Source of the DNA: an uncultured Bdellovibrionales bacterium
Lineage (GTDB): Bacteria; Patescibacteriota; Minisyncoccia; Moranbacterales; DUUL01
Assembly (NCBI GenBank): GCA_964505305.1
Contig: CAZDHE010000002.1
Span: 1-59,173 of the forward strand
Reading direction: 5' to 3'
Length of the DNA: 59,173 nt
Below the pieces are notes generated by a model that worked only from the letters and a program-made list of their open reading frames with translations, ran no database searches and had not been told where the DNA came from. The position numbers were made by a program, and so were the translations under genes. Below are positions 37,261 to 50,608 of this stretch, in pieces; the stretch's first letter is position 1; every line of letters begins with the position of its first letter.

Positions 37261-37289
37261 ATTATATTCCACCAAGCTCCCCTTGTCAA
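37261..37289 (-). promoter_or_regulatory. Consensus sigma-70 promoter of the mraZ operon
   Basis: Minus strand TTGACA-17 nt-TATAAT (ttgaca aggggagcttggtggaa tataat). Confidence 0.85.
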
Positions 37290-37346
37290 ACATTTCCAAC
37301 CCTTTTTAGAATATCAAAAAAACGGCTTAAATAAGCCGTTTTAAAA
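37268..37346. repeat. 79-bp direct repeat copy A (terminator + -35 region), partner at 38420-38498
   Basis: 73/79 identical by manual alignment. Confidence 0.9.
37319..37342 (-). terminator. Intrinsic terminator hairpin
   Basis: aaaacggctta-aa-taagccgtttt perfect stem with T/A tails. Confidence 0.65.
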
Positions 37347-37576: not shown

Positions 37577-38251
37577 TTAAAGTTTTTCAACTTTTACTCC
37601 TGTAAACCTGCTTGGATCTTGGATAGATTTAATGAAGCCTGCATCGTATTTATTACTACTTAAATCAATATTACTAGCTTTTAATAATTCTTCTTTCTCC
37701 TCATCCGTCACCCATGTTTCTTCAAGAGGAATATTTTTTCTGGCCTTTGAAAAGAATATTTCCACCACTTCTCCATTATTTGTATTATATTCCACAGATA
37801 TTCCGTACCCATCTTTTTCAAAACGTTTTGTCCAAGTATCCGCCGAGTTCCCCTCAATTGCAGTCTCTGTTGGTTCGGGGTTATCATTAGTTGGCTCTCC
37901 ATACTGTTTAGTAAAATAAGAAATTTTTTTGTTTAATAGACTAGGCACATCAAAAACGATACTCTCTTCATTTTCTTCCCTGACAACCTTTTTATTGTCC
38001 TCCTGAACTTTTTCTACATTAATCTCCTCCTCAAATGAAGAATTAATAGCAAAAAGTAAAACCAATATGATTAAAGTTGATATAATTTTTATTGAATTAT
38101 TCCACTCTGTTTTCGCCCATATATACCAAATTAGAAAAAGGGGTAACAACAATATTACTAAAACCAAACCCCAACCAGAAGCATACCACTCTTTTTGTTT
38201 TTCACTCTTTTGATTTAACTCATTGTTTTTTTTATTGTTTGGTTTTTCCAT
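37577..38251 (-). CDS. Membrane-anchored protein, N-terminal paralog of 41461-42297
   Basis: KEWYASGWGLVLVILLLPLFLIWYIWAKTEWN versus KEWYQTGWGIVIAILFLPYFLVWYMWVKTNWN; C-terminal domains differ. Confidence 0.8.
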   Translation of the reverse strand: MEKPNNKKNNELNQKSEKQKEWYASGWGLVLVILLLPLFLIWYIWAKTEWNNSIKIISTLIILVLLFAINSSFEEEINVEKVQEDNKKVVREENEESIVFDVPSLLNKKISYFTKQYGEPTNDNPEPTETAIEGNSADTWTKRFEKDGYGISVEYNTNNGEVVEIFFSKARKNIPLEETWVTDEEKEELLKASNIDLSSNKYDAGFIKSIQDPSRFTGVKVEKL

Positions 38252-38419
38252 AATGCAAATTAATGATAATTTATTATAATTTTAAAAAAATACTAGACTA
38301 TTCGAAAATAAACATTATTTAACGAAACACCTTTCTGTCACCATTTGCAAAAACATTTAGAAAAAATGTCTATCATAAAAGTTGAATTCGCCATTTTTTT
38401 CTTCCTAATTTTAGGATAC

Positions 38420-38498
38420 TCCACCAAGCTCTCCTTGTCAAACATTTCCAACCCTTTTTAGAATATCTAAAAAACAGCTTAAAAAAGAAGTTTTAAAA
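38420..38498. repeat. 79-bp direct repeat copy B, abutting the tRNA-His 3' fragment
   Basis: tccaccaagctctccttgtcaaacatttccaaccctttttagaatatc...; terminator stem mutated; TTGACA-17-TATCCT retained on the minus strand. Confidence 0.9.
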
Positions 38499-40096
38499 TG
38501 GGCGACTAGAGGGGCTTGAACGATGACTTTCCTGTGAGCAGAGAATAAATCCTTAAAATCATCTCTTGGTTCAACGGCTACAACTTTCTTATTTTTTACC
38601 CAAATTCTTTTTATTGTCATTCTTATCCAGTCCCTTTTCTCTTCCTTAGAAAGTTCTTCTCTCCAGAATTTACCAAATTCTTTTAAAAATTTTTCGGTCT
38701 TTTTAATTCTTTGTTCTTGTTCTCTGGCAGTCATACTGCCTGTAACGCCTTTTCTTTCAAAGGATTCTATCTCTTCTTTTGCTTTTTGCATTTTATAAAG
38801 ATATTCGTTTTCTGGTATATGGCCATTTTCAAACATTACTTTCAATCTTTTTTTTCGAGATAAAATATTATGAATCTCTTCATCTGTTTTTTGATTTTTT
38901 GCGTTTTTCTTAAAAAGCTCTCTAAGACTTTCCAGTGTTAATTTTATAACATCCTCTGGCAATTTCATGCCACTCATAAACTGAAAAATTTGTTTATCAA
39001 TAATTTCGCATTCCACCTTAGGTTGCTTACAACTTTTATTCTCTTTCGCAAATTTGCAGGTATAAAAATAATTTTCTTTTCCCGTTTTATTGTTTCTGTG
39101 ATATTCACAATACATTGAGGGATGCATTCTTCTTAAACTACTCTTCTCGTTTCCTTTTAAATGTTTTATGCAATTATAACAATAAACTAAGCCTTGAAGA
39201 AGATAAAAACGATGTTTGGCAACTGGTCTCCCAAACTTTCCCTTTCTCTCCGCTAAAACATCTTGACATTTATCAAAAAGCTTTTTTGAAATGATTGGCT
39301 TATGAACAGTGCTCTTGATATCTGGCAATGGTTTCCTGGGAGACCAAACTAACCCTAGATAAGATTTATTTGGAATAATACATTTGACTGATGAGAAGGT
39401 GAAAGGATTTCCCATTCTTGTTTTATACCCTTCTTTCGTTAATATTTCAGCTATTTTTTGGATAGAGTAATTGCCGGAAGCATACATCTTAAAAATTCTT
39501 CTCACTATCTCTGCTTCCTTTTTATCTATGTGCCATTCTTTTGAATACAAGGGGCGATTTCTTTCATTATCCCACCCAAGCTTTTTTCTTTTATAACCAA
39601 GTGGCAAATTTCCCCCTATTGGTTTCCCTGAGCTTCTTTTTTGCATTAAAGCGCTTTTCACCCAAAAACCAAGCTGTCTTGAATAATATTCATCAAATAA
39701 TTCATTTATTCCCTCATTAAGGAAAGCGGACGGATCATTGAAATCTCCAAAATTCTGAGTTGTTGAAATCACATCAATTCCCTGTTTTTTTCTCAGTAAA
39801 TTTTTGTATTGCCTGGCCTCCTCGACATTTCTTGCAAATCTGGAAGTGTGAAAAACAATAATAACCTCAAACTTTTTTTGCATCGCATCTTCAATCATTA
39901 CCTGAAAATTGTCTCTTTTTGAGGCTATTTTTCCAGAAATTAGGTCTTTGTATATATGCTGGATTTCTATATTGTTTTTCTTGGCATATTCCCTTATTGC
40001 CCTTTCTTGGGCTTGAGGAGAAAACCCCTTGTCTTGCTATTCCGTGCTTTCTCTTATATAGCCAACGCCAATATTTTTTATCTTTTCATCTTTCAT
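38438..40096 (-). pseudogene. Large serine recombinase interrupted by in-frame TAG at codon 20 (40037-40039)
   Basis: MKDEKIKNIGVGYIRESTE*QDKGFSPQAQERAI... continues in frame into ORF 38438-39898 (VFHTSRFARN, GGNLPLGY recombinase domain, LLQGLVYCYNC zinc ribbon, coiled coil). Confidence 0.88.
38501..38513 (-). pseudogene. 3' fragment of host tRNA-His (T-stem 3' strand + acceptor + C73), left junction
   Basis: Minus strand CCCTC-TAGTCGC-C pairs exactly with GAGGG and GGCGACTA of the 5' fragment at 47197-47258. Confidence 0.88.
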
Positions 40097-40221
40097 TTTG
40101 AGGATTTATTAAATAGACTATCTTAATGAAAAAATTTTTAATTAAGATGTGAAGTGTGAAATTCATCAAAAAATCAATAAACATCGCCCTTTGGGGTGAT
40201 TAATCTTGTTTTATTGCTTTA

Positions 40222-40647
40222 TTATAAACCAAGAATCGATTTTTTCTTGGCCTGGAATTCTTCTTCGCTGATAATTTCTTGATCTCTTAGGTCAGCTAGT
40301 TTTTTAATCTCATCAGCGTAATTATTTGTAGATTGTGGTTTTGTTTCATTCGCAACATCTGCTATTTTTTGATCAATTAATTCCTTGGCTTTATCTGCCT
40401 CTTTTTTATTAACAGCTTTAATAATTAAATTTCCGCTTCCTCCCTTATTAACTATTTCAATATCAGCAGTTAAGAAACCTCTTGTAATATTTATTTGAGC
40501 GATATTTTGGTAAAGTAGGTGCATTTTTACCCTTTTCCCTACAACCAATCCTTCTCCATAAACCCCATCCTCCAAAACTTGTAATTCTTGCTTCCAAGTG
40601 TTTGATAATAGTTTACTTCCTTTTACTGTCATTAAAATCTTTGCCAT
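40222..40647 (-). CDS. PH-like domain + C-terminal SHOCT domain protein
   Basis: C-terminal ADEIKKLADLRDQEIISEEEFQAKKKSIL is a SHOCT-type motif. Confidence 0.8.
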   Translation of the reverse strand: MAKILMTVKGSKLLSNTWKQELQVLEDGVYGEGLVVGKRVKMHLLYQNIAQINITRGFLTADIEIVNKGGSGNLIIKAVNKKEADKAKELIDQKIADVANETKPQSTNNYADEIKKLADLRDQEIISEEEFQAKKKSILGL

Positions 40648-40673
40648 ATTTTTTATTAATTGTTAATTTAAAA

Positions 40674-41441
40674 CTAGTTATTTATAATAAGGTTTCTTTT
40701 TATCTCATTAAAGCATTCACTTGGGCTTCTTGGGGGATTTATCGCCTTTTTTTCTTTTTCTGCAAATTTATTATATATTTCTTCAATTTTTTTCTTCTTC
40801 AAATCCAATTTTTTAATAATTTTTTCTATTCTTTCAATTACTCCTGGAGCTAGAAAAGAAAATTCTTGATCAAAGGGCTTCATAATATCATCTTCTAATT
40901 TTACTACGTTCTCAGAATCGTCCAAGGGCATGTTTTGGGGTCCATTCAAATCTAGGTAACATACAGCCAAATAAAAGCCTAAAGCATACTCCAATTTGTT
41001 CTGCCTTCTAAGCATTTCCCCCATCTGAAATCTTGTGTTTCTATATAGTCCCCATTGATGTTTTTTTGCATAATTCAAAATGTCCTCATTCAACAAGCTC
41101 CATTGAACATCAAAATCTGAAATTTTATTTTTGCTTTCTGATTTATTTAATAATTTCTCTTTTCTTTTTCGATACCTTTCCTTTTCTACTAAGTAAGCCT
41201 CTTGTGTACCATTTTTAATTCGCCATTCTTCATCAATTTTATCTGCTTCGCTTTTTGTCACAGTTAACCTGACACCTCTTGTGTTGGTGCGAACATAAAT
41301 ATAGTTATCACAACTTGAGCATTTTGTTTTAGCGCCAGGTTTCTTCTCTAAACATTTCCCACAGTAAGGACACTCAGCTTTTCGCTGATCTTTGCCCCTT
41401 TTTTTAATATTTATGAAATTAAATATTTTCACAATAATCAA
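40674..41441 (-). CDS. Zinc-ribbon (CPYC...CSSC) helical protein of unknown function
   Basis: ECPYCGKCL...TKCSSCDNYIYVR, WGLYRNTRFQM, VCYLDLNGP. Confidence 0.7.
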   Translation of the reverse strand: MIIVKIFNFINIKKRGKDQRKAECPYCGKCLEKKPGAKTKCSSCDNYIYVRTNTRGVRLTVTKSEADKIDEEWRIKNGTQEAYLVEKERYRKRKEKLLNKSESKNKISDFDVQWSLLNEDILNYAKKHQWGLYRNTRFQMGEMLRRQNKLEYALGFYLAVCYLDLNGPQNMPLDDSENVVKLEDDIMKPFDQEFSFLAPGVIERIEKIIKKLDLKKKKIEEIYNKFAEKEKKAINPPRSPSECFNEIKRNLIINN

Positions 41442-41460
41442 TCTGTTTTAATGATTGAGC

Positions 41461-42297
41461 TTATTTAATCGCAGGATGTTCTTGATAGAAGGCTGCCACT
41501 TTTTCCAGATTTTCTCTCAAGAAATTATCCCAATTTATCTCTTTTATATCTTCACTTTTTAAAGAAACTGTTAAAACATTCTCACTAGACTCATTCCCTT
41601 TCACATCAACCAATGGCAGTTCAGCTACTATAGTTACCCGACGGAAATTGTCCAATATTTGATTATTTAAATTGGAAAACACATTTACCATGTCAGTTTT
41701 AATACCACCTGCTGTCATGCCGGAAGTAAAATTTTCGCTAGCACGAAATTTAATCCACAATTCATTCCTCTCTGTTTTTATTGAAATAACAGTTTTTTTA
41801 TCCATATTGTTCTTTTCTCCGATTTGGTTAACGACAACTGTCTCTGCATCTCGTAAAAGAGTGTCCTTTTTTGTTTCCCACTGATAGTTACTCTTTTTTT
41901 CATCTTCTTTCTTATCTGAGGAATCTTCTTCCGTTTTAGTATCCCCAACTTGTTCCTTTTCTTGATTAGTTGCCACATCATTTTGAGGTGGTTCACTATC
42001 ACTATCTAAAACAGCTATGTTTACGATTACAAATATAATTGTAATCGCAATTTTTAATTTCTTATTCCAATTTGTTTTTACCCACATATACCATACTAAA
42101 AAATATGGCAAAAATAAGATGGCAATAACTATGCCCCACCCTGTTTGATACCATTCTTTTTTTTGGCTTTTTTGTGCCTCGCCACTAGGCATTTGTTGAT
42201 CATTCATTTTTTTAAATAAATTGTTAACTAGAATTTTATCGTCCATAGGTACACAAAAGGCCCCACGAATCGACGACAGTCCTTTCGGAATGCCCAA
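41461..42297 (-). CDS. Membrane-anchored secreted-domain protein (start probably 42247 or 42207)
   Basis: Two TM helices shared with 37577-38251, acidic linker, C-terminal globular domain. Confidence 0.75.
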   Translation of the reverse strand: MGIPKGLSSIRGAFCVPMDDKILVNNLFKKMNDQQMPSGEAQKSQKKEWYQTGWGIVIAILFLPYFLVWYMWVKTNWNKKLKIAITIIFVIVNIAVLDSDSEPPQNDVATNQEKEQVGDTKTEEDSSDKKEDEKKSNYQWETKKDTLLRDAETVVVNQIGEKNNMDKKTVISIKTERNELWIKFRASENFTSGMTAGGIKTDMVNVFSNLNNQILDNFRRVTIVAELPLVDVKGNESSENVLTVSLKSEDIKEINWDNFLRENLEKVAAFYQEHPAIK

Positions 42298-42299
42298 TG

Positions 42300-42400
42300 T
42301 CCTTTCAGATCATTGACCTAGCTAACAAGTGTCGACCGCGAGGCCGTCTCTGTTAGCTAGGATTTGATGCCATGCCCACGCAAAAAGCATGAGTTTAGGC
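42300..42400 (-). ncRNA. Candidate structured 5' leader/ncRNA
   Basis: Perfect cctagctaaca/tgttagctagg stem (about 42317-42361) in a GC-rich intergenic patch with GAAA-loop hairpins nearby. Confidence 0.35.
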
Positions 42401-42653
42401 TTTTTTCTATCTTTATTTTAAACCCTTATGGCTAAAAGATCAAGGTTTTAAAAAATTAACAACCTAAACATTGGAAATATTTTTACCCCCCCCTGAAAAT
42501 TATTAACCATTAGATTATTTAGCCGCTCAATGTGTGTAAAAATTTACACACATAATGGCGTAATACTATATTGATATTTCACAAGAACATTCATAATTTT
42601 TCCATATTTTATTAATATAATTCAATCTTGATAAATTTTTATGCAACAAAGAT

Positions 42654-42685
42654 AAGCAAAAGGCGACTGCGGTTGCCTTTTGCTT
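42654..42685 (-). terminator. Intrinsic terminator after the DUF4352-like gene
   Basis: aagcaaaaggcg ... tgccttttgctt stem. Confidence 0.7.
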
Positions 42686-42701
42686 TAAGATTCAAGATGT
42701 T

Positions 42702-43250
42702 TTAGTACAGCTGAATTTCAACATTGTCGCTACTCCAAAAGTCAGGAGTAAATTGTAATTTAAATTTCTCTGAATCTTCAGGCGTTTCAAATGTAACCCA
42801 CCCTCTAACTTTTCCACCAGGATTAAGTGTTCCAGAACTCAGTTCAGGTTCTTTATCTTCCGTCATGCCTTGGTCGAAACTATAACCTTCGCTGTCATAA
42901 AGTTTCCAATCGAAAGGATTGTAGCTTAGTGATTTATCAGAGGTATTGTTCTCGTATTTAACTTCTATAGCCACAAGCTTATTCCCCGCTTCCGGTTGCA
43001 TAAACTCGTTTTTCGCTTTGAACGGGTCTTCCATGTCCGTTACTGTCACTGCATAGTCGCCAAGTTTTATATCCTCGCCCAATTTGAACGTTTTTTGGGC
43101 TTCTTTTTTTTCTTCTTGGGAGGATTTTTTGGATGAAGAGTCATCAACCTTTTCTGGTTGTGTTCCTTGAGGCACACCCGAAGAACCTGTGCATCCTGCC
43201 AGGAAAACAAGTGCAATAAAAAATGCAGACAAAGTTAATGCCTTTTTCAT
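42702..43250 (-). CDS. DUF4352-like lipoprotein
   Basis: Lipobox FLAGC; FKLGE, VAIEVKYENN, FDWKLYDSEGYSF, GTLNPGGKVRGWVTFETP. Confidence 0.85.
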   Translation of the reverse strand: MKKALTLSAFFIALVFLAGCTGSSGVPQGTQPEKVDDSSSKKSSQEEKKEAQKTFKLGEDIKLGDYAVTVTDMEDPFKAKNEFMQPEAGNKLVAIEVKYENNTSDKSLSYNPFDWKLYDSEGYSFDQGMTEDKEPELSSGTLNPGGKVRGWVTFETPEDSEKFKLQFTPDFWSSDNVEIQLY

Positions 43251-43296
43251 ATTATCACCCCCTTTCCACGAAAATTTATTTGCATTAGATGATTAA

Positions 43297-43464
43297 TTAA
43301 TTTAATCTTTCACGTAAATTTTGAGACTCTTGTTGCAACCTCTCACCTCTTTTCTCCATTTTATCTAATTTTTTATCATTTTGCCATATTCTAAACACTC
43401 CAAACAAAAATATCGCAAGCACAACAGAAACAATAACAAGAGCTAACCTGCTAGGTTTTTTCAT
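43297..43464 (-). CDS. 55-aa single-TM + coiled-coil peptide (not in ORF track)
   Basis: Manual translation MKKPSRLALVIVSVVLAIFLFGVFRIWQNDKKLDKMEKRGERLQQESQNLRERLN. Confidence 0.7.
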   Translation of the reverse strand: MKKPSRLALVIVSVVLAIFLFGVFRIWQNDKKLDKMEKRGERLQQESQNLRERLN

Positions 43465-43539
43465 TATTTTTTATTAAAGTTTAAGGTAACCAACTAATTT
43501 CTTTTTTTGACTGAGGAAACAAAAAAGGACAGCCGAGCC

Positions 43540-43652
43540 GTTCACCCACAACAAACTTCGCGAGGAAGTCCAATTATGGAACTCGACTGCCCATTACTAT
43601 CCACAATCGGATAAATAGGCAGTGCCTCGCGAAATCTGAGTTGTAGGTGAAC
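43540..43652 (-). ncRNA. Long multi-stem hairpin starting at a predicted transcription start
   Basis: GTTCACCTACAAC/GTTGTGGGTGAAC, TTCGCGAGG/CCTCGCGAA, ACTGCC/GGCAGT and TATCC/GGATA stems; TATAAT 6 nt upstream (43659-43664). Confidence 0.5.
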
Positions 43653-43843
43653 ATTTAAATTATAACAAAATATATAAAAAAAGCAAAAACAAGAAATTTA
43701 TAAAATGAAAAGGCTTCGTTCTTAATAAACACAAAGTTAGATAAAAAACTGTGATCTTCTTTTTGTCCAACTTATTAGACACATTTTCACGTAATACTTA
43801 AAAAACAAGAGGCATATCAAAATATGTCTTTTTAATAGTGTAA

Positions 43844-44998
43844 TTATAATAACTTTGTTTGCCCAAAAGGCTTCAAAGCAAATTCGGATAAAAAATAATT
43901 ATGTATTTTACTAGCCGTTAAGTTGTTTAATGATGCAAAGTTTATCTGTTTTGCTATTTTATTAATTTCATTTATATGGTTGTAATATGTTTGTCGGCTC
44001 TTGTAGTTATTAAATGAATATTCCTTAAATCCTTTCACCCCGCCTTTTGACTGAATTTTTTCAATAGCATATTTCGCAAGCATCCTTTTATCAATGCGTT
44101 TTATATTTTTATCTAATATTGCTTCTACTAATGGAGAGTTTGAGCTACTTAAAAAAATGAAGTCTTGTAGAGGGTGAACGAAAATTCTTTTAACTTCTTT
44201 TTTTAATAATTCTTTCCAGATTTCATTCTTGAAGATATTTTCAATAGTTACTTCATTGCAATTATAGAGCTTAAGTCTACTCTTAATCGTGCTTTTTCTC
44301 TTCAATGTCAACTCTACTCTTATTAATTCGCATAATAACACCTTATTTTTCTTGTATCTCTCGTTGCTCAAAGATTTAATGACATTCTTTTCCTTTGGAG
44401 TAATTGCATTTGATTTTAACTCCTGTAACTTTGAATAAACCTTAAAAGTCGAAGATTTTGTACTGTAGTATAGCTCAGCTCCTCCGTCTCGGGGCTTTAT
44501 AATATAGCAACTGGATCTAAAACGATCATCAAATTTTGACAATGTATCTATAACTTGTTCACAGCTACAAATTTCTGTGAAGTCTATATTTTTACTAAAA
44601 GCCACCAAGGAAGGTTCGGCATCAAGAATTTCTTTCGAAAAAATCTTTCTTGTACCAATGTCATTTTCTAAGAAAGATTGCATCTTTTCAACAAACGGCA
44701 ACAAGTCACTATCTCGTGGAATTGCAATATTATGACCATATAGAAATTTTGGAACTGAAACTTCTATAAACAATTTTTTGTTTTGAGGATTTAAAAAGTC
44801 TTCTTGAAACCATATTTTTGGTGTATATATTCCTCTCTTTTTCCTCTCTTTTCTCCAGTTATTTGCTGTATAGACATATCTAGAGCTTCCTTTGTCAACA
44901 GGGCTATTTATTAATTCTTTATACTTAATTTTTTCTGAAAAAAATTCCTGGGCTTTTCTATCAAACTTTATATTTAATGCAAATTTCACAGTATCCAT
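43844..44998 (-). CDS. Putative rolling-circle replication initiator (Rep_trans / phage gpII-X-like)
   Basis: MDTVK start, IEVSVPKFLYGHN, ELYYSTKSSTFKVYSKLQE and IRVELTLK resemble motifs of this superfamily; recognition only. Confidence 0.55.
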   Translation of the reverse strand: MDTVKFALNIKFDRKAQEFFSEKIKYKELINSPVDKGSSRYVYTANNWRKERKKRGIYTPKIWFQEDFLNPQNKKLFIEVSVPKFLYGHNIAIPRDSDLLPFVEKMQSFLENDIGTRKIFSKEILDAEPSLVAFSKNIDFTEICSCEQVIDTLSKFDDRFRSSCYIIKPRDGGAELYYSTKSSTFKVYSKLQELKSNAITPKEKNVIKSLSNERYKKNKVLLCELIRVELTLKRKSTIKSRLKLYNCNEVTIENIFKNEIWKELLKKEVKRIFVHPLQDFIFLSSSNSPLVEAILDKNIKRIDKRMLAKYAIEKIQSKGGVKGFKEYSFNNYKSRQTYYNHINEINKIAKQINFASLNNLTASKIHNYFLSEFALKPFGQTKLL

Positions 44999-45019
44999 AG
45001 AGGAGTTTTGAAGAAGAAG

Positions 45020-45220
45020 CTAAGTCATTGCCCTAGGTTCTCGGGAAAACTCCTCAGAAAACCCTTTCCTAGGGCAATGGCTTTGCTCTTCCTTGGTTAA
45101 TGGATTATTTTCAAAGTGTCTGTTATTCCAAAATTCAAAGAAAAATCCGGCTAATTGTTCTGCAACCGCTTTATTTTGTTTATCAGTGATTTTTGGATTC
45201 TTATTATTAGTCATTTTCAA
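45020..45220 (-). CDS. Small hypothetical protein upstream of Rep
   Basis: 66-aa ORF in operon-like position; function unknown. Confidence 0.55.
   Translation of the reverse strand: MKMTNNKNPKITDKQNKAVAEQLAGFFFEFWNNRHFENNPLTKEEQSHCPRKGFSEEFSREPRAMT
45026..45079. repeat. Perfect 12-bp inverted repeat upstream of rep
   Basis: cattgccctagg (45026-45037) / cctagggcaatg (45068-45079). Confidence 0.8.
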
Positions 45221-45228
45221 TTAAAAAA

Positions 45229-45249
45229 ACTGCAAATTATATTTGCAGT
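45229..45249. promoter_or_regulatory. Palindromic operator candidate
   Basis: actgcaaat-tat-atttgcagt directly upstream of the small ORF/rep unit. Confidence 0.5.
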
Positions 45250-45292
45250 CTAAGATAATTAAAAATAACGTGATATTACCAATAAAGAATCC

Positions 45293-46054
45293 TTATATGT
45301 CAGTGATTCGTTTTTTAATTCTGTTCAGGATTATACCGATATCATCGTATAATAATGCTTTCCCTTTAAATTCTTCATTTATCTTTTTTGCTATCTCAGA
45401 ATAAGACAGTCCCTTTTCTCGTAAATCATAAATTCTTAAATCCCTATTGAAGTTTGTTTTAGGTTTATTTCTTCCTTCTTTGTAATTCATCGTCCTTTTC
45501 TTATATCGTTTTATTAAAGGCCATACATTCTCTATATCCTTTATCGTTGTGTTACTAAAAACCTCTAAAAAGAGTCTGTAAGTTTTTTTATCTTCTTTAT
45601 CTCTTTCAAACCAAAATCCAACATTATCTCTTGGAATGTAAACTAATGTGTTGTTTGTAAGATATAGCATTACTGTTTTGTGGTAGTGCTGAGAAATGCT
45701 ATATTTTTTCATTATTTCATCAATTTCACTATAAAACTTATTTAAGGGTGTTTTCTGATCTAATTTTGTAAGTTTGCTTTTACAGCTATCATAGGTCTTG
45801 TAATCCTTGCTCTTTTTTGCTTGTTCAATCTTTTTAAGCAGAGTTCTTCTATTGTCATTATAATCTTTACTTGCTATAAACTTATCAGTTTCCCTTCCGA
45901 GCCAATGCCACCATCCCTCTACTTCTTCATCCTTCAAGCCCTCATCTCCAATAAGCCATTTTTTACGAAAAGAGAGCGCTTCGTCTTGGAAGGATTTTTT
46001 TCTTATCAACAATTCAAATTTTTGCCTATTAAAACTCGAGGAATTATTTTTCAT
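45293..46054 (-). CDS. Protein with C-terminal helix-turn-helix (element regulator candidate)
   Basis: RDLRIYDLREKGLSYSEIAKKINEEF...IGIILNRIKKRI. Confidence 0.65.
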   Translation of the reverse strand: MKNNSSSFNRQKFELLIRKKSFQDEALSFRKKWLIGDEGLKDEEVEGWWHWLGRETDKFIASKDYNDNRRTLLKKIEQAKKSKDYKTYDSCKSKLTKLDQKTPLNKFYSEIDEIMKKYSISQHYHKTVMLYLTNNTLVYIPRDNVGFWFERDKEDKKTYRLFLEVFSNTTIKDIENVWPLIKRYKKRTMNYKEGRNKPKTNFNRDLRIYDLREKGLSYSEIAKKINEEFKGKALLYDDIGIILNRIKKRITDI

Positions 46055-46117
46055 TTTTTTAAATATTTACTAAAAAAGAACTGCAAAAACAGTTCTTTAA
46101 GCTGAAATCTGCAGAGG

Positions 46118-46189
46118 GGCGAGTAAAGGGAATTGAACCCTTATGTCCGGTGCCACAAACCGGTGTTCTACCATTGAACTATACTCGCC
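46118..46189 (-). tRNA. tRNA-His(GTG), intact, element-borne
   Basis: G-1:C73, GCGAGTA/TACTCGC acceptor, CCGGT-TTGTGGC-ACCGG anticodon arm, AAGGG-TTCAATT-CCCTT T-arm. Confidence 0.95.
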
Positions 46190-46256
46190 CCACTATAGAC
46201 TTCCACGAGATAATTAACGAAAATTAAAGATAAATTATATCATATAAACAATTATA

Positions 46257-47066
46257 TTACAATAGTTTGTTGTAATCATACTGAACATCTTTTGGTGCAA
46301 ATATAATGCCAAAGCCATTTACCCTCCCTCCCTTATTGTCTCTAATGTTATCTTTAATAACGTCATAATATTTCTTATTATCTTTTTTAAAATATTCTCT
46401 TACTGCTCCAGTTGTGAAATCCGCTACTTGCAAGAGTTCGCAATATTTAGCATGAGTGTAAAATAAAGTCTCACGCAAACAATGTCTTAACTCAATTTTT
46501 TTCCAATCCTTTCCTTCAATGTATATATCTTCAAAATCATCACTATACATATGACCTTTTTTCCATAAATCGTTATAAGTTTTTGCAAGATTCACCTTTT
46601 TTTTAGGTCCAAGATAATCTATTATCATTTGTCCATGAGGATAATATCCTTGTTTTGTTGCATTAAAACCAACTTTCCCTGACAAGAAAAAAACAAATCT
46701 TTCAGCTAACCTAGAAAGTGCGAAACACTGAGAATTCCAATAATTATCATCGTTTCTTATTACTGAACAAATTATTGTTGTTTCATATTCCTTCAATAGA
46801 TTAAGAACTTCTTCTCGCAATTTGTTTCTTTTAGCAGGAGGGAGGGCATATTGTTCAGGACATTCTCTTTTTGTTGGAGACCATTTTATATAAGCATCTT
46901 CATTTCCTAATATATCCTGTTTTATTTTTTTTAATTCAAGTTGAAAATTTGCCTCCCTCATTCCATTTTTTATAATAAATCCGCCTAGATAACAAGGATT
47001 CTCATTGGTTCCAGAATCATCTAGATAAAAAACAAATCTTTCAGGCACTTTATTTTCAGTCAACAT
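46257..47066 (-). CDS. DUF3800-like (RNase H-like fold) protein
   Basis: FYLDDSG N-terminal motif and LLQVADF C-terminal motif. Confidence 0.75.
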   Translation of the reverse strand: MLTENKVPERFVFYLDDSGTNENPCYLGGFIIKNGMREANFQLELKKIKQDILGNEDAYIKWSPTKRECPEQYALPPAKRNKLREEVLNLLKEYETTIICSVIRNDDNYWNSQCFALSRLAERFVFFLSGKVGFNATKQGYYPHGQMIIDYLGPKKKVNLAKTYNDLWKKGHMYSDDFEDIYIEGKDWKKIELRHCLRETLFYTHAKYCELLQVADFTTGAVREYFKKDNKKYYDVIKDNIRDNKGGRVNGFGIIFAPKDVQYDYNKLL

Positions 47067-47196
47067 TATAAAATTACAATTTAGTATGTAAAATCATTTC
47101 AACGCAGAATTATGAGATTGATGCACCTTATAATGATCACATCCCAATAATTTTATTCTTTTCCATATCTTGTAGCTAGGAAAGTCATTGTCTTGG

Positions 47197-47258
47197 GGGA
47201 ATTGAACCCTCATATCCGGTGCCACAAACCGGTGTTCTACCATTGAACTATAGTCGCC
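47197..47258 (-). pseudogene. 5' fragment of host tRNA-His(GTG), right junction
   Basis: GGCGACTATAGTTCAATGGTAGAACACCGGTTTGTGGCACCGGATATGAGGGTTCAATTCCC then diverges (CCAAGAC); no acceptor 3' strand locally. Confidence 0.9.
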
Positions 47259-47364
47259 ATATGTTTTTAATGTATCTCAAATCAATGCTTTTTCCTATAG
47301 TCAGCCCGGCATTCGCCGGGTTCTCAATTTTATTGCTAAATCAAAGATTTAGATAAAATTGGAA

Positions 47365-47380
47365 AACTATAGTCGCCATA
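47365..47380. repeat. 16-bp direct repeat of the tRNA-His 5' end
   Basis: aactatagtcgccata, identical to 47246-47261. Confidence 0.8.
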
Positions 47381-47538
47381 AAATTAAAAATACTAATTTA
47401 CTCACTGTCTTTTTCCTATAATTGCGAGGACATAGGATTTTTTTAGATTCCTATGGGATAAGTTAAAACAAGACTTACTCACTCGGCGTACAAGGTTAAG
47501 AATAGCATAATTATTGATTTTAATCAATAGGCCGTAAA

Positions 47539-48732
47539 TTGATGGTAAAAATTCAAGAAAAAACTCTTAATAACGGACTAAACATTCTTGCAATCAAAAA
47601 CCCTTCCATGCAAGGATTGAATGTCAGTCTTTACATTAAGTCGGGTTCTTGTCAAGAAACAAATTTAAATAATGGCATTTCTCACCTGTTAGAACACTTA
47701 ATCTTTTATGCAGCTCTCCAAGACTCAAGATCGCATCACTCCCCCTTAAAATTGGAGCTTAAAGCCTTGACCGGAAAAGAGTTTACTTTCTTTGAAATAA
47801 CTCATCACAAGGATTACCTAAAAAACATTCTGGATATCTTATTTTCAACTATAACCGAAGCCGAATTTAATCAAAAGTTGATTAAAGATCAAAAAAGTAC
47901 CATTGAGCAGGAAATCGCCGAAGACGAAGAAAATCCCTTTTCCGCGCTGGAGAAAAAACTGGATGAAAAAATATACGCAAAAACTTCCCTGCAACTGCCG
48001 ATTCTGGGTAATAGAAAAAGTTTAGCCAATATAAGCCTCAAAGAAGTGGAGCAGTGGTATCAATTTTTCTACACTCCCGAAAATATGCTCCTGGCCGCAA
48101 GCGGAAACTTTGGCAACAAAAAACTATTTTCCATTATTGATAAAACTTTCGCTAAGTTAACTTCTTCAAAAAATGAGAAGGCCGGCTTGGAAAAGAATGG
48201 AATGAAAAGGATTCCGTTAAGTCTAAAAAAACGCGTGTTTGATTCAATTTATTTGGCAATAGCCTTTCCAATGCGCTTTAAAATGGGAAGCAGAAAGTAT
48301 TTTGAATGCGTTCTTTTGGCGAATATTTTCGATTACAAATTTAAACTAATAAAAAACAACTTTAAGGAAATTTATGATGTGGATATCTACTTCCATCAAT
48401 TACTCAAAAGAGGCGAAATCAGGGTGTTGACTTCCGCGCCCAAGGCAGAATCAAAAGATTTGATTAACAAATTGGCCAATGAAATTATTACCATTGATTT
48501 TTCGGAAAGTTTTTTCGCAAAAGCAAAGGAGTTAACTGAGAAAGAGTTCCTACTCAGAGAAGACAACCTGGAAGCACTGTCTTCCCTTGCTTTATACAAA
48601 TTATCCGAAATAAATACTCTCCAACCGAAAGAAGAGGCGAAAATAATAAATTCTATTAATTATTCGGATTTAAAAAAACTGCAAAAACAATTAATAAACA
48701 AACAAAATTGCATTAAGGCCGAAATATTTTAA
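47539..48732 (+). CDS. M16 (pitrilysin/insulinase) family zinc peptidase
   Basis: LNNGLNI, GS..E...NNGISHLLEHL (HxxEH), PILGN, FYTPENMLLAASGN. Confidence 0.9.
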   Translation: MMVKIQEKTLNNGLNILAIKNPSMQGLNVSLYIKSGSCQETNLNNGISHLLEHLIFYAALQDSRSHHSPLKLELKALTGKEFTFFEITHHKDYLKNILDILFSTITEAEFNQKLIKDQKSTIEQEIAEDEENPFSALEKKLDEKIYAKTSLQLPILGNRKSLANISLKEVEQWYQFFYTPENMLLAASGNFGNKKLFSIIDKTFAKLTSSKNEKAGLEKNGMKRIPLSLKKRVFDSIYLAIAFPMRFKMGSRKYFECVLLANIFDYKFKLIKNNFKEIYDVDIYFHQLLKRGEIRVLTSAPKAESKDLINKLANEIITIDFSESFFAKAKELTEKEFLLREDNLEALSSLALYKLSEINTLQPKEEAKIINSINYSDLKKLQKQLINKQNCIKAEIF

Positions 48733-48778
48733 AGAAGAGCATTTATGATAAATACTCTTCTTTGTTTTATCCGGATGG

Positions 48779-48955
48779 TTACGGTTTGCTTCTCTTGGAA
48801 CCGCCTCCCTTGGTGTTCCCTGTCTTGCCGGATTTAGCCGGACTTTTGCCGGAAGATCCGCTTCCCGAATCATGAAATGATTTTCCTCCTCCGGGTCGGC
48901 ATCTGTTTGAGCCATGCCCCGTCCCTGTCCTGCTGGGCTGATTCTTCTGAGCCAT
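48779..48955 (-). CDS. 58-aa Gly/Ser/Lys-rich disordered peptide (not in ORF track)
   Basis: MAQKNQPSRTGTGHGSNRCRPGGGKSFHDSGSGSSGKSPAKSGKTGNTKGGGSKRSKP; AAAGGGG 7 nt before the ATG; fills a GC-rich patch. Confidence 0.5.
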   Translation of the reverse strand: MAQKNQPSRTGTGHGSNRCRPGGGKSFHDSGSGSSGKSPAKSGKTGNTKGGGSKRSKP

Positions 48956-49302
48956 CTTGCAACCCCTTTTTGCTTTTCGGGTTCGACAAATTCCAAACAG
49001 CTTTGTTCTTTATTACCCCATCTAGTTAAAAAAATTTCTCGAGAGGAACTGGCCGCTAAATTGAAAGGTAATATAGGACAGTTAGAGACAAACATTCAGA
49101 ATTTCGATTTCTGCAAATGCAAAAGTCAAACTTCTAACTCCCCTTCAAAGAAAGTAATTTACCAAGCTTGCATAGCATCAACAGATAAAATTGCAACAAT
49201 TTTCTCTATACTACCATATTACGTTATTACGTTATATGGTAGTATAAGTTCGTCAAGGTAGTGAAAATTAAAGGTCTAGAAAAGATTAGCTTGTTTTTTA
49301 AT

Positions 49303-49337
49303 AAAAAAGCGGGTGGTTTAAATAAACACACCCGCTT
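49303..49337 (-). terminator. Intrinsic terminator after the MMPL operon
   Basis: aagcgggtg/cacccgctt stem with an A run on + (U tail on -). Confidence 0.7.
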
Positions 49338-49360
49338 GATTGAAATATTTTTTCAGTATC

Positions 49361-50608
49361 TTAGAAAAAATATTTGAAGGTTAAAAATACTGCATCGTTT
49401 TCGTACTGCCCCCAGAAAGAATCTTCGGGGCCGTTGGTTAACTGAATTCCTCCTTCCAGTTGCCAATCATCTTTCTGATAGACAACTTTCGGACGCCAGA
49501 AGGAGTCCGAATCGGAGAGATTATAGCTTCCCTCTAATTCCAATTTCCAGGGACAGCCTCCTCCAAATTCATAATCCGCTTTCCAAAGAAAGGAATTTTG
49601 AAAAGACCGGCGGAAATCGGTAACCTCCACTACCGATTCCGAAGCTTCGGAAGTAACCTCTTCATTAGTGTATTGAAACAACAACACCAACGAATCCGTT
49701 GCCCGAAAAAGTCCATAGAATTCCTTCTGAGCTCCCAGGACGTATTGGAAGAAATCGTCTCCCTTGTCCTGGTCATAATATCCGGCTTCGGATTTGAGGA
49801 TGATTCCCCAGGGTATCTCTCTGACCAAAGCGCCGGAGATAACTTTCTGGTCGGAATATCTCAGCTCCAGTTCCGGCCCGGTTAAACCCGGGTTGATTTT
49901 GCCGTAGGGATTATAGCTGACACCATCGTAGTAGGCCAGCGTCATATCAAACTCTTGCCAAATTTTGTTAACCTTAACCGCGTATTGAAAGCGGTTTTCA
50001 TTAACCATCTCCTCTTTGCCAGCTAATCCTGCCGGCAAATTTTCTTCCCACCTGCCTTGAGGCAGTTTTGAGGGAGTAAATTCCGGGACCGCCACTGCCT
50101 GAACCGACCAGGTCCAGCCGTCATAGCGGGTATTAAAAGCCGGAATACCGACTCGCTCCCAATCGGGAATCAAAGTCCAGTCCCGTGCCGATAAATTATC
50201 CATCGGCGAGACCGTATCCGTTGTGCTCCAGTCAAAAATTTGATTACCCACTTTGAAGGTAAGATTCTGGTAGAAATATTCCAAGTAAGCTTCCCGGATA
50301 TTAGCTGCCCAACGCTGCTCCTCCTCAGTGAGAGAGTCAATAGCGCCGGTGGCAAAATCTTCATTGTCTATCCGAAAATCACCGGCCAGGAACAAAGATA
50401 GATTGGGCGTTTTTTCGGAACTCACGGTCACTTCAGGCAAAACCCGAACTTCCCCAAAATACTCCTTGCCTTTAGGAGAATTTTCCAGATAAGCCTTTCC
50501 GGTTGTCCTGACTTCCACTTTGGGATCGATTTCGACTTGAGAACTTGATCCCACAGAAACAAAACCAAACAGCAAAATCAATGTAGCAATAAGCATCTCT
50601 CTAATCAT
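49361..50608 (-). CDS. Signal-peptide protein with outer-membrane beta-barrel character (DUF1302-like)
   Basis: GGAGGAG SD before ATG 50608; IREAYLEY, KVGNQIFDW...SPMD motifs; alternating aromatic beta-strand pattern; C-terminal FKYFF. Confidence 0.65.
   Translation of the reverse strand: MIREMLIATLILLFGFVSVGSSSQVEIDPKVEVRTTGKAYLENSPKGKEYFGEVRVLPEVTVSSEKTPNLSLFLAGDFRIDNEDFATGAIDSLTEEEQRWAANIREAYLEYFYQNLTFKVGNQIFDWSTTDTVSPMDNLSARDWTLIPDWERVGIPAFNTRYDGWTWSVQAVAVPEFTPSKLPQGRWEENLPAGLAGKEEMVNENRFQYAVKVNKIWQEFDMTLAYYDGVSYNPYGKINPGLTGPELELRYSDQKVISGALVREIPWGIILKSEAGYYDQDKGDDFFQYVLGAQKEFYGLFRATDSLVLLFQYTNEEVTSEASESVVEVTDFRRSFQNSFLWKADYEFGGGCPWKLELEGSYNLSDSDSFWRPKVVYQKDDWQLEGGIQLTNGPEDSFWGQYENDAVFLTFKYFF

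Follow-up and report, generated by a model that had tools for sequence, protein, structure and literature searches.

The window, by which is meant the whole stretch of 59,173 nucleotides that was analysed, carries four tRNA genes detected by ARAGORN. One of them is a tRNA-His(gtg), assigned to positions 46116-46188 on the minus strand, and the Rfam tRNA model matches the same gene with 70.2 bits (46118-46188). Read on the minus strand, this intact gene runs from G-1 at 46189 to C73 at 46118 and lies inside an 8.7-kb element. Its anticodon is GUG, its minimum-free-energy fold is a cloverleaf and all the histidine identity features are kept, including a genome-encoded G-1 facing C73. The G-1:C73 pair is an identity element of bacterial tRNA-His. 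On the minus strand, the gene is preceded by a leader, GAAGTCTATAGTG (46190-46202), and followed by a trailer, CCTCTGCAGATTTCAGC (46100-46117), both delimited by alignment and the latter also by means of the sequences of two related loci, L048 and L210. Leader and trailer are complementary, and their pairing would lengthen the acceptor stem of the tRNA-His by about 10 bp. Such a pair (AAGTCTAYAGTG and CTCTGYAGATTT) flanks native as well as element-borne tRNA-His genes in these lineages (positions 1287-1300 and 1375-1390 of L044; positions 9916-10021 of L043) and is absent around the native tRNA-His of the genus to which the host belongs.

A repeat search revealed a 62-nt copy of this tRNA at 47197-47258, 95% identical to the intact gene. 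It lies on the minus strand and corresponds to the 5' fragment of a host tRNA-His, from G-1 to position 63, which forms the B arm of attL. The Rfam tRNA model recognizes it with 43.6 bits, over model positions 8-63 only. Read on the minus strand, the fragment starts at G-1, includes the T loop and ends with CCC, where it gives way to an unrelated sequence, CCAAGACAATGACTTTCC. The 3' fragment of the host gene, CCCTC-TAGTCGC-C, was located by its exact match to GGCGACTAGAGGG at 38501-38513 on the minus strand and forms the B' arm of attR. The two fragments are 8.7 kb apart and neither is called as a tRNA by ARAGORN. Once joined, they give a perfectly paired 72-nt cloverleaf, and the 5' fragment matches this reconstructed host tRNA at 100% over positions 1-62.

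The element bracketed by the two tRNA ends spans about 38514-47196, with a G+C content (0.29-0.35) below that of the flanks. At attL, the tRNA 5' fragment is followed by the P' arm, AGGAAAGTCATTGTCTTGG (47178-47196, plus strand), which was read from the junction sequence. At attR, the 3' fragment comes right after the recombinase codons and is preceded on the minus strand by the P arm, AGGAAAGTCATCGTTCAAGC (38514-38533), defined from the junction sequence and from its translation. The P' arm repeats the P arm in inverted orientation. The two ends of the element, AGGAAAGTCATTGT (plus strand, 47178) and AGGAAAGTCATCGT (minus strand, 38533), thus form an imperfect inverted repeat that matches as AGGAAAGTCAT(C/T)GT, and attL and attR have only CCC in common. 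With their imperfect inverted-repeat arms and this short common sequence in place of a long core, the junctions have the layout typical of serine integrases. Because the P arm encodes the last conserved residues of the recombinase (RKVIVQA), attP lies inside the recombinase gene.

The recombinase gene (38438-40096, minus strand) belongs to the large serine type, with Pfam matches to Resolvase, Recombinase and, weakly, Zn_ribbon_recom. Its 3' end runs across attR into host DNA. The N-terminal resolvase domain (PF00239) carries the catalytic-serine motif YIRESTE (Y-x-R-x-S-T) and is the only part of the protein matched by sequence to a solved structure. The recombinase domain (PF07508) scores 69 bits. 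The zinc ribbon (PF13408) scores 20.5 bits, below the cut-off of 25.3, and Cys residues are conserved in the alignment of homologues. Directly after the catalytic-serine motif, an in-frame TAG is found at 40037-40039 (YIRESTE*Q; recombinase start at 40096), at a position occupied by a near-invariant Glu in 31 intact homologues. An alternative genetic code was considered for this codon and ruled out, as TAG ends 7 of 31 long open reading frames and no tRNA with a CUA anticodon is among those that ARAGORN finds in the genome. Unless the TAG is an assembly error, this copy of the recombinase would be disabled and a full-length enzyme would need readthrough. The nonsense codon would then make the element copy immobile, and the element has probably been immobilised while carrying the only tRNA-His.

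Between its ends, the element encodes a 384-aa protein (43844-44998, minus strand) that weakly resembles a replication protein (phrog_702, E = 2e-7) and a protein of about 253 aa (45293-46054). The order of these two genes is conserved in the sibling loci L048 and L210. A DUF3800 gene (PF12686; 46257-47066, minus strand) fills a cargo slot flanked by the P' arm and the element tRNA, and DUF4352 and SHOCT proteins are also encoded, according to Pfam. Among the PHROG matches within the element, none is annotated as a structural gene and most of the matched families are of unknown function. A structured RNA, the LOOT RNA (RF03000, 67.7 bits), is present at 42275-42401 on the minus strand. It also occurs within five related elements that split tRNA-His (L048, 3437-3559; L210, 4523-4645; L155, 6422-6552; L074, 6933-7047; L056, 7057-7178), and this orphan RNA motif seems to belong to the element family. 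A literature search for the LOOT RNA returned articles whose main text carries no description of it.

Probable replacement of the single tRNA-His gene

The host genome is about 1 Mb, assembled at 88% completeness in 57 contigs with 39 tRNA genes, and the element-borne copy is the sole intact tRNA-His that ARAGORN finds in the assembly. In genome G001, from the same genus, an uninterrupted tRNA-His stands at the syntenic site, which is empty there; its flanks match positions 47365-47396, 47439-49369 and 38477-38521 of the window. Together, the intact syntenic gene of G001 and the single intact copy found here imply that integration would have destroyed the one resident tRNA-His, which the element copy now replaces. 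The target was left unreconstructed and a tRNA of the same isotype was supplied by the element. Mechanistically, strand exchange by a large serine recombinase would have taken place in the host's single tRNA-His gene at tRNA positions 61-63, the CCC with which the 3' strand of the T stem begins, leaving the two halves of the gene 8.7 kb apart. The attP of the element does not rebuild the target gene; immediately inside its P' end, the element brings a whole tRNA-His gene equipped with a leader and a trailer of its own. The sequence-only reading had argued from the compensatory nature of the stem changes that this tRNA is under selection for function. That argument is well founded, and the retention of the histidine identity features and the status of the gene as sole intact tRNA-His of the assembly strengthen it. 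As judged from these features, the element tRNA-His is very probably functional, and it would be expressed and essential, although a second tRNA-His gene could lie beyond the 88%-complete assembly.

The element is one of a family. A search with the recombinase collected 116 homologues of about 535 aa (E <= 1e-20), and those with a named source are all labelled Patescibacteria. Within 27 genomes of the same family as the host, no homologue exceeds 36% identity, and for lack of a close relative there the comparison relied on metagenome contigs. In most of the Patescibacteria loci that were fetched, the last codons of the recombinase contain the same P arm, fused to the 3' end of a tRNA-His. Two exceptions are L070 (position 137), inserted in a tRNA-Pro(GGG), and L156 (4009-4087), which lies beside a tRNA-Asp. 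The opposite orientation is seen in L053 (7409-7479), L055 and L138, where the P arm is fused to the reverse complement of the 5' part of tRNA-His. A large recombinase clade of Actinomycetota (Solirubrobacterales), 32-35% identical to the query, was also retrieved (L072-L126 and L157-L206).

The far end of the element shows the same regularity. Nine other loci, on contigs that reach far enough (L051, L056, L065, L069, L074/L133, L139, L143, L154 and L155), display, one after the other, a 5' fragment of tRNA-His, a P' arm, a short slot for cargo and an intact tRNA-His. L210 follows the order of 5' fragment, P' arm and intact tRNA-His over the part covered by its contig. The P' arms that follow the 5' fragments are homologous in L051, L056, L065, L069, L074, L155 and L210. 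A particular situation is encountered in G019:C37 (L044). There, the tRNA-His locus is native and syntenic with that of G013, and two successive units, each made of a 5' fragment and a P' arm (55-140 and 1130-1215), stand upstream of the intact tRNA-His, the second behind a cargo open reading frame. This arrangement suggests that an element-borne copy may have been split by a later element and that what remained of each element would afterwards have been lost by deletion. The cargo frame has no similarity to the DUF3800 gene of the window, so the slot carries variable cargo. Both 5' fragments of G019:C37 have a hairpin, TCCCGCCTCGGCGGGA, in place of AACACTGGTT, which corresponds to the 3' strand of the D stem and the 5' strand of the anticodon stem.

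Comparison with known integration systems

The phiC31, Bxb1, TP901-1, A118 and SPbeta integrases combine a resolvase catalytic domain with a recombinase domain, as does the present enzyme. Short att sites, imperfect inverted-repeat arms and a split target that excision would restore are further traits common to large serine integrases and to the element described here. Those five integrases split protein-coding genes. In the window, by contrast, the target is the T arm of a tRNA gene and a substitute for the gene is brought along.

Use of a tRNA gene as landing site is otherwise familiar from classical genomic islands and prophages that use tyrosine integrases (such as P4-like elements and NBU1), whose crossover sublocations include the T loop. 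In these systems, however, the 3' part of the tRNA is present in attP, so that integration restores the gene at attL and displaces nothing but a 3' fragment. In the present element, the 5' and 3' fragments are both non-functional and a whole extra gene is supplied.

The closest published analogue is the tRNA-dependent lysogeny of actinobacteriophages (Fionnbharth, Cluster L; Guerrero-Bustamante and Hatfull 2024, PMC10865867), and the Lactobacillus johnsonii prophage Lj965 is mentioned in the same study. These phages, which use tyrosine integrases, leave the host tRNA-Lys unrebuilt and depend on their own tRNA, which differs from that of the host at several bases (PMC10865867). The authors also speculate on tandem integration, with a plasmid-borne tRNA gene serving as a second attB (PMC10865867). 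The present element resembles this system in that the target tRNA is not rebuilt, a carried cognate tRNA compensates for the loss and some bases differ between the two. Still, the published cases are complete phages whose tyrosine integrases use arm-type sites, whereas here a large serine recombinase contains attP in its own last codons, the element carries a Rep-like gene, no virion genes were detected in its 8.7 kb, and it resides in a Patescibacteria genome that has one tRNA-His gene. The element thus works like tRNA-dependent lysogeny but is not a member of it. A search of the literature on serine recombinases with tRNA-His or Patescibacteria found no description of a replacement-tRNA strategy for serine integrases. 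The tRNA is ordinary, unlike its context: widespread Patescibacteria elements would destroy the single tRNA-His gene by means of a serine integrase and put their own copy in its place. This would extend the principle of tRNA-dependent lysogeny to a second class of integrases and to non-phage elements in ultra-small genomes, and would imply horizontal turnover of an essential tRNA gene.

Origin of the differences between the two tRNA-His sequences

The element tRNA and the reconstructed host tRNA had been reported, from the sequence alone, to differ at 5 of 72 nt, and the joined fragments bear this out. The acceptor pair C5:G68 is changed to G5:C68 (5 C>G, 68 G>C), the T-stem pair G49:C65 to A49:T65 (49 G>A, 65 C>T) and one T of the variable loop to C. 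As had also been claimed, both stem changes are compensatory, and the D arm, the anticodon arm, G-1 and C73 are unchanged. Less secure is the proposal attached to these differences, namely that the element tRNA was recoded and can no longer be used as attB. In our opinion, the five differences probably reflect the divergence of a tRNA-His lineage that travels with the element, as the replacement gene of an 8.7-kb element, from the allele resident in the host. The two base-pair swaps would be compensated because the element copy is the only tRNA-His of the cell, in which every stem change has to be matched by a change in its partner. We infer a neutral or purifying origin for the five differences, and ordinary compensated divergence is most likely what the five-base "recoding" represents.

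Each variant occurs naturally. A49:T65 is found in the native syntenic tRNA-His of G001, and G5:C68 in native genes of genera g2-g4 of the same family. The notion that the variant simply matches the native tRNA of a related donor is thus borne out for its parts but not for the whole, since none of the 319 genomes of the order has a native tRNA-His identical to the element tRNA. The closest is that of G001 (96%, 3 differences), and the next best is 89% identical. The tRNA of the element lineage would accordingly be closest to the tRNA-His of the host's own genus. On sequence comparison, the body of the element tRNA is genus-like whereas its leader and trailer are element-like, a combination that simple vertical descent of the cassette does not explain and that, like the lack of an identical native gene, speaks against the reading preferred here.

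According to the recoding proposal, the swaps at 5:68 and 49:65 would have been selected to spoil the element's own tRNA as attB, so that recombination of attP with the internal tRNA would neither break the circle in two nor lead to self-reintegration. The risk of self-targeting is real, if one considers the second attB evoked for the published analogue (PMC10865867), and the stretch that a serine integrase would read as attB includes four of the five changed bases. The earlier count of four changes out of five at no more than about 17 bp from the crossover is correct, but such clustering in a single case does not go beyond chance (binomial P = 0.09). The sites used by siblings speak against the proposal. 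The recombinase of L207 is 72% identical to that of the window and its P arm, AGGAAAGTCATTGCTCAAGCC, is near-identical. L207 is integrated in a tRNA-His whose 3' arm, CCCTT-TACTCGC-C (CCCTTTACTCGCC), is exactly the "recoded" 13-nt arm; there, CCCTTTACTCGCC serves as the B' arm of attB and is followed by a native tRNA-Arg. Other B' arms in use contain TACTCGC (L050, L151) or CCCTT-CACTCGC (L049). Among close relatives, the B' acceptor strands read TAGTCGC, TACTCGC, CACTCGC, TGATCGC, TGGTCGC and TGGCCGC. They vary freely at positions 66-69 and, in view of this diversity of sibling loci, positions 65-69 as a whole are taken to be freely variable in the functional B' arms of this clade.

Comparison of the carried tRNAs with their split targets leads in the same direction. 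Ten complete element/host pairs differ at 0, 0, 1, 3, 4, 5, 6, 13, 17 and 20 nt, the window accounting for the pair with 5 differences. In L056 and L155, the body of the carried tRNA is identical to the split target, and in L074 the single difference is far from the crossover. Identical pairs suggest that a difference in the tRNA body between the spare and its target is not required. This has a bearing on how such elements avoid self-destruction and on the design of landing pads for serine integrases. In the two identical pairs, the sequences diverge only from about 15 nt beyond the crossover, and an outer contact of attB beyond that distance could still contribute. The two scars of G019:C37 point the same way, if a second element did split an element-borne copy. 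Taken together, the sibling sites, the pairs and the natural variants do not support the idea that the element tRNA has become unusable as attB; they weaken this idea without refuting it, and selection to spoil the internal site appears quite unlikely.

The distribution of the differences deserves consideration in its own right. Of the five close pairs, which have 1-6 differences, four (window, L051, L065 and L069) show a change at acceptor pair 5:68 or 6:67, located at about +6 to +8 in the B' arm, and position 68 also differs between the element and host tRNAs of L064 and L210. As a control, 17 of 86 pairs (20%) of native tRNA-His at similar distance, from the same family and order, differ there. 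The nominal P is 0.006 and rises to 0.03 when the identical pairs are included, for a test that is post hoc, in which the native pairs are non-independent, L065 and L069 probably stand for one event and the control comes from one family. This numerical excess is a hint of more than neutral drift and nothing firmer. Gene conversion or mispairing of hybrid tRNAs would fit the enrichment at 5:68 and 6:67 as well as selection against attB use does. In the case of conversion, the host 5' fragment (positions 1-63), which lies 0.1-1 kb upstream, would act as donor and make the body of the element tRNA host-like. Positions 64-73, with no donor nearby, would stay of the element type and, through selection for pairing, would hold their partners 5 and 49, so that differences would gather in pairs involving the 3' end without any selection on attB. 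Such a process would account for a leader and trailer of the element type (common to L048, L210 and the g12 genes) around a body closest to genus g1. Six of the seven swapped base pairs in close pairs do involve the 3'-terminal strand, but with 12 of 21 expected the excess does not reach significance (P = 0.12). Moreover, the element tRNA of L210 differs from that of its host inside the supposedly converted stretch, and one genome cannot reveal a conversion tract. Concerted evolution of this sort is regarded as unlikely.

A further mechanism may be imagined on the basis of the position of the crossover, which separates the partners of the swapped pairs. Fusions between host and element halves would be mispaired and would probably leave the cell with a dead sole tRNA-His, so that trimming of the element would be prevented; the deletions blocked would be those that remove the P' end, or the cargo together with the integrase. 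In silico folding shows that acceptor pairing is lost in both kinds of host/element chimera, and trimming seems to occur where the halves are compatible, the intact tRNA of G019:C37 standing on its native flank behind two scars. This scheme is nevertheless purely inferential, two elements with identical tRNAs have no such lock, and loss of pairing in hybrids would be a by-product of any compensatory divergence. We hold it to be highly improbable.

A broader formulation, in which 5:68 and 6:67 would be a battleground between element and target, may be entertained as a rather unlikely possibility. The copy would be kept different at just those pairs that have their 3' partner in the B' arm, either to escape use as attB by its own or by incoming integrases, or else through the lethality of hybrids, which would lock the element in. 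If this were true, serial replacement by such elements would lie behind the unusual diversity that tRNA-His acceptor stems show across Patescibacteria.

Finally, the surroundings of the host gene may bear traces of other events. The first 10 nt of the host tRNA-His with 3 upstream bases (CTATAGTCGCCAT) recur 119 nt upstream (window 47260-47379), and the upstream copy has a flank that matches G001. In the 105 nt between the two copies there is a terminator-like hairpin, as well as a segment of 51 nt that is 96% identical to the region upstream of the tRNA-His of G026. The repetition and the intervening segment suggest that the "host" tRNA-His may itself have undergone an earlier rearrangement. 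On the other side, the sequence just downstream of the host tRNA-His forms an 83-nt direct repeat, 92% identical, at 37264-37346 and 38416-38498. The repeats enclose 1.07 kb with one open reading frame for a DUF443-like membrane protein (37577-38251), a segment that may be a second small insertion beside the host tRNA-His.
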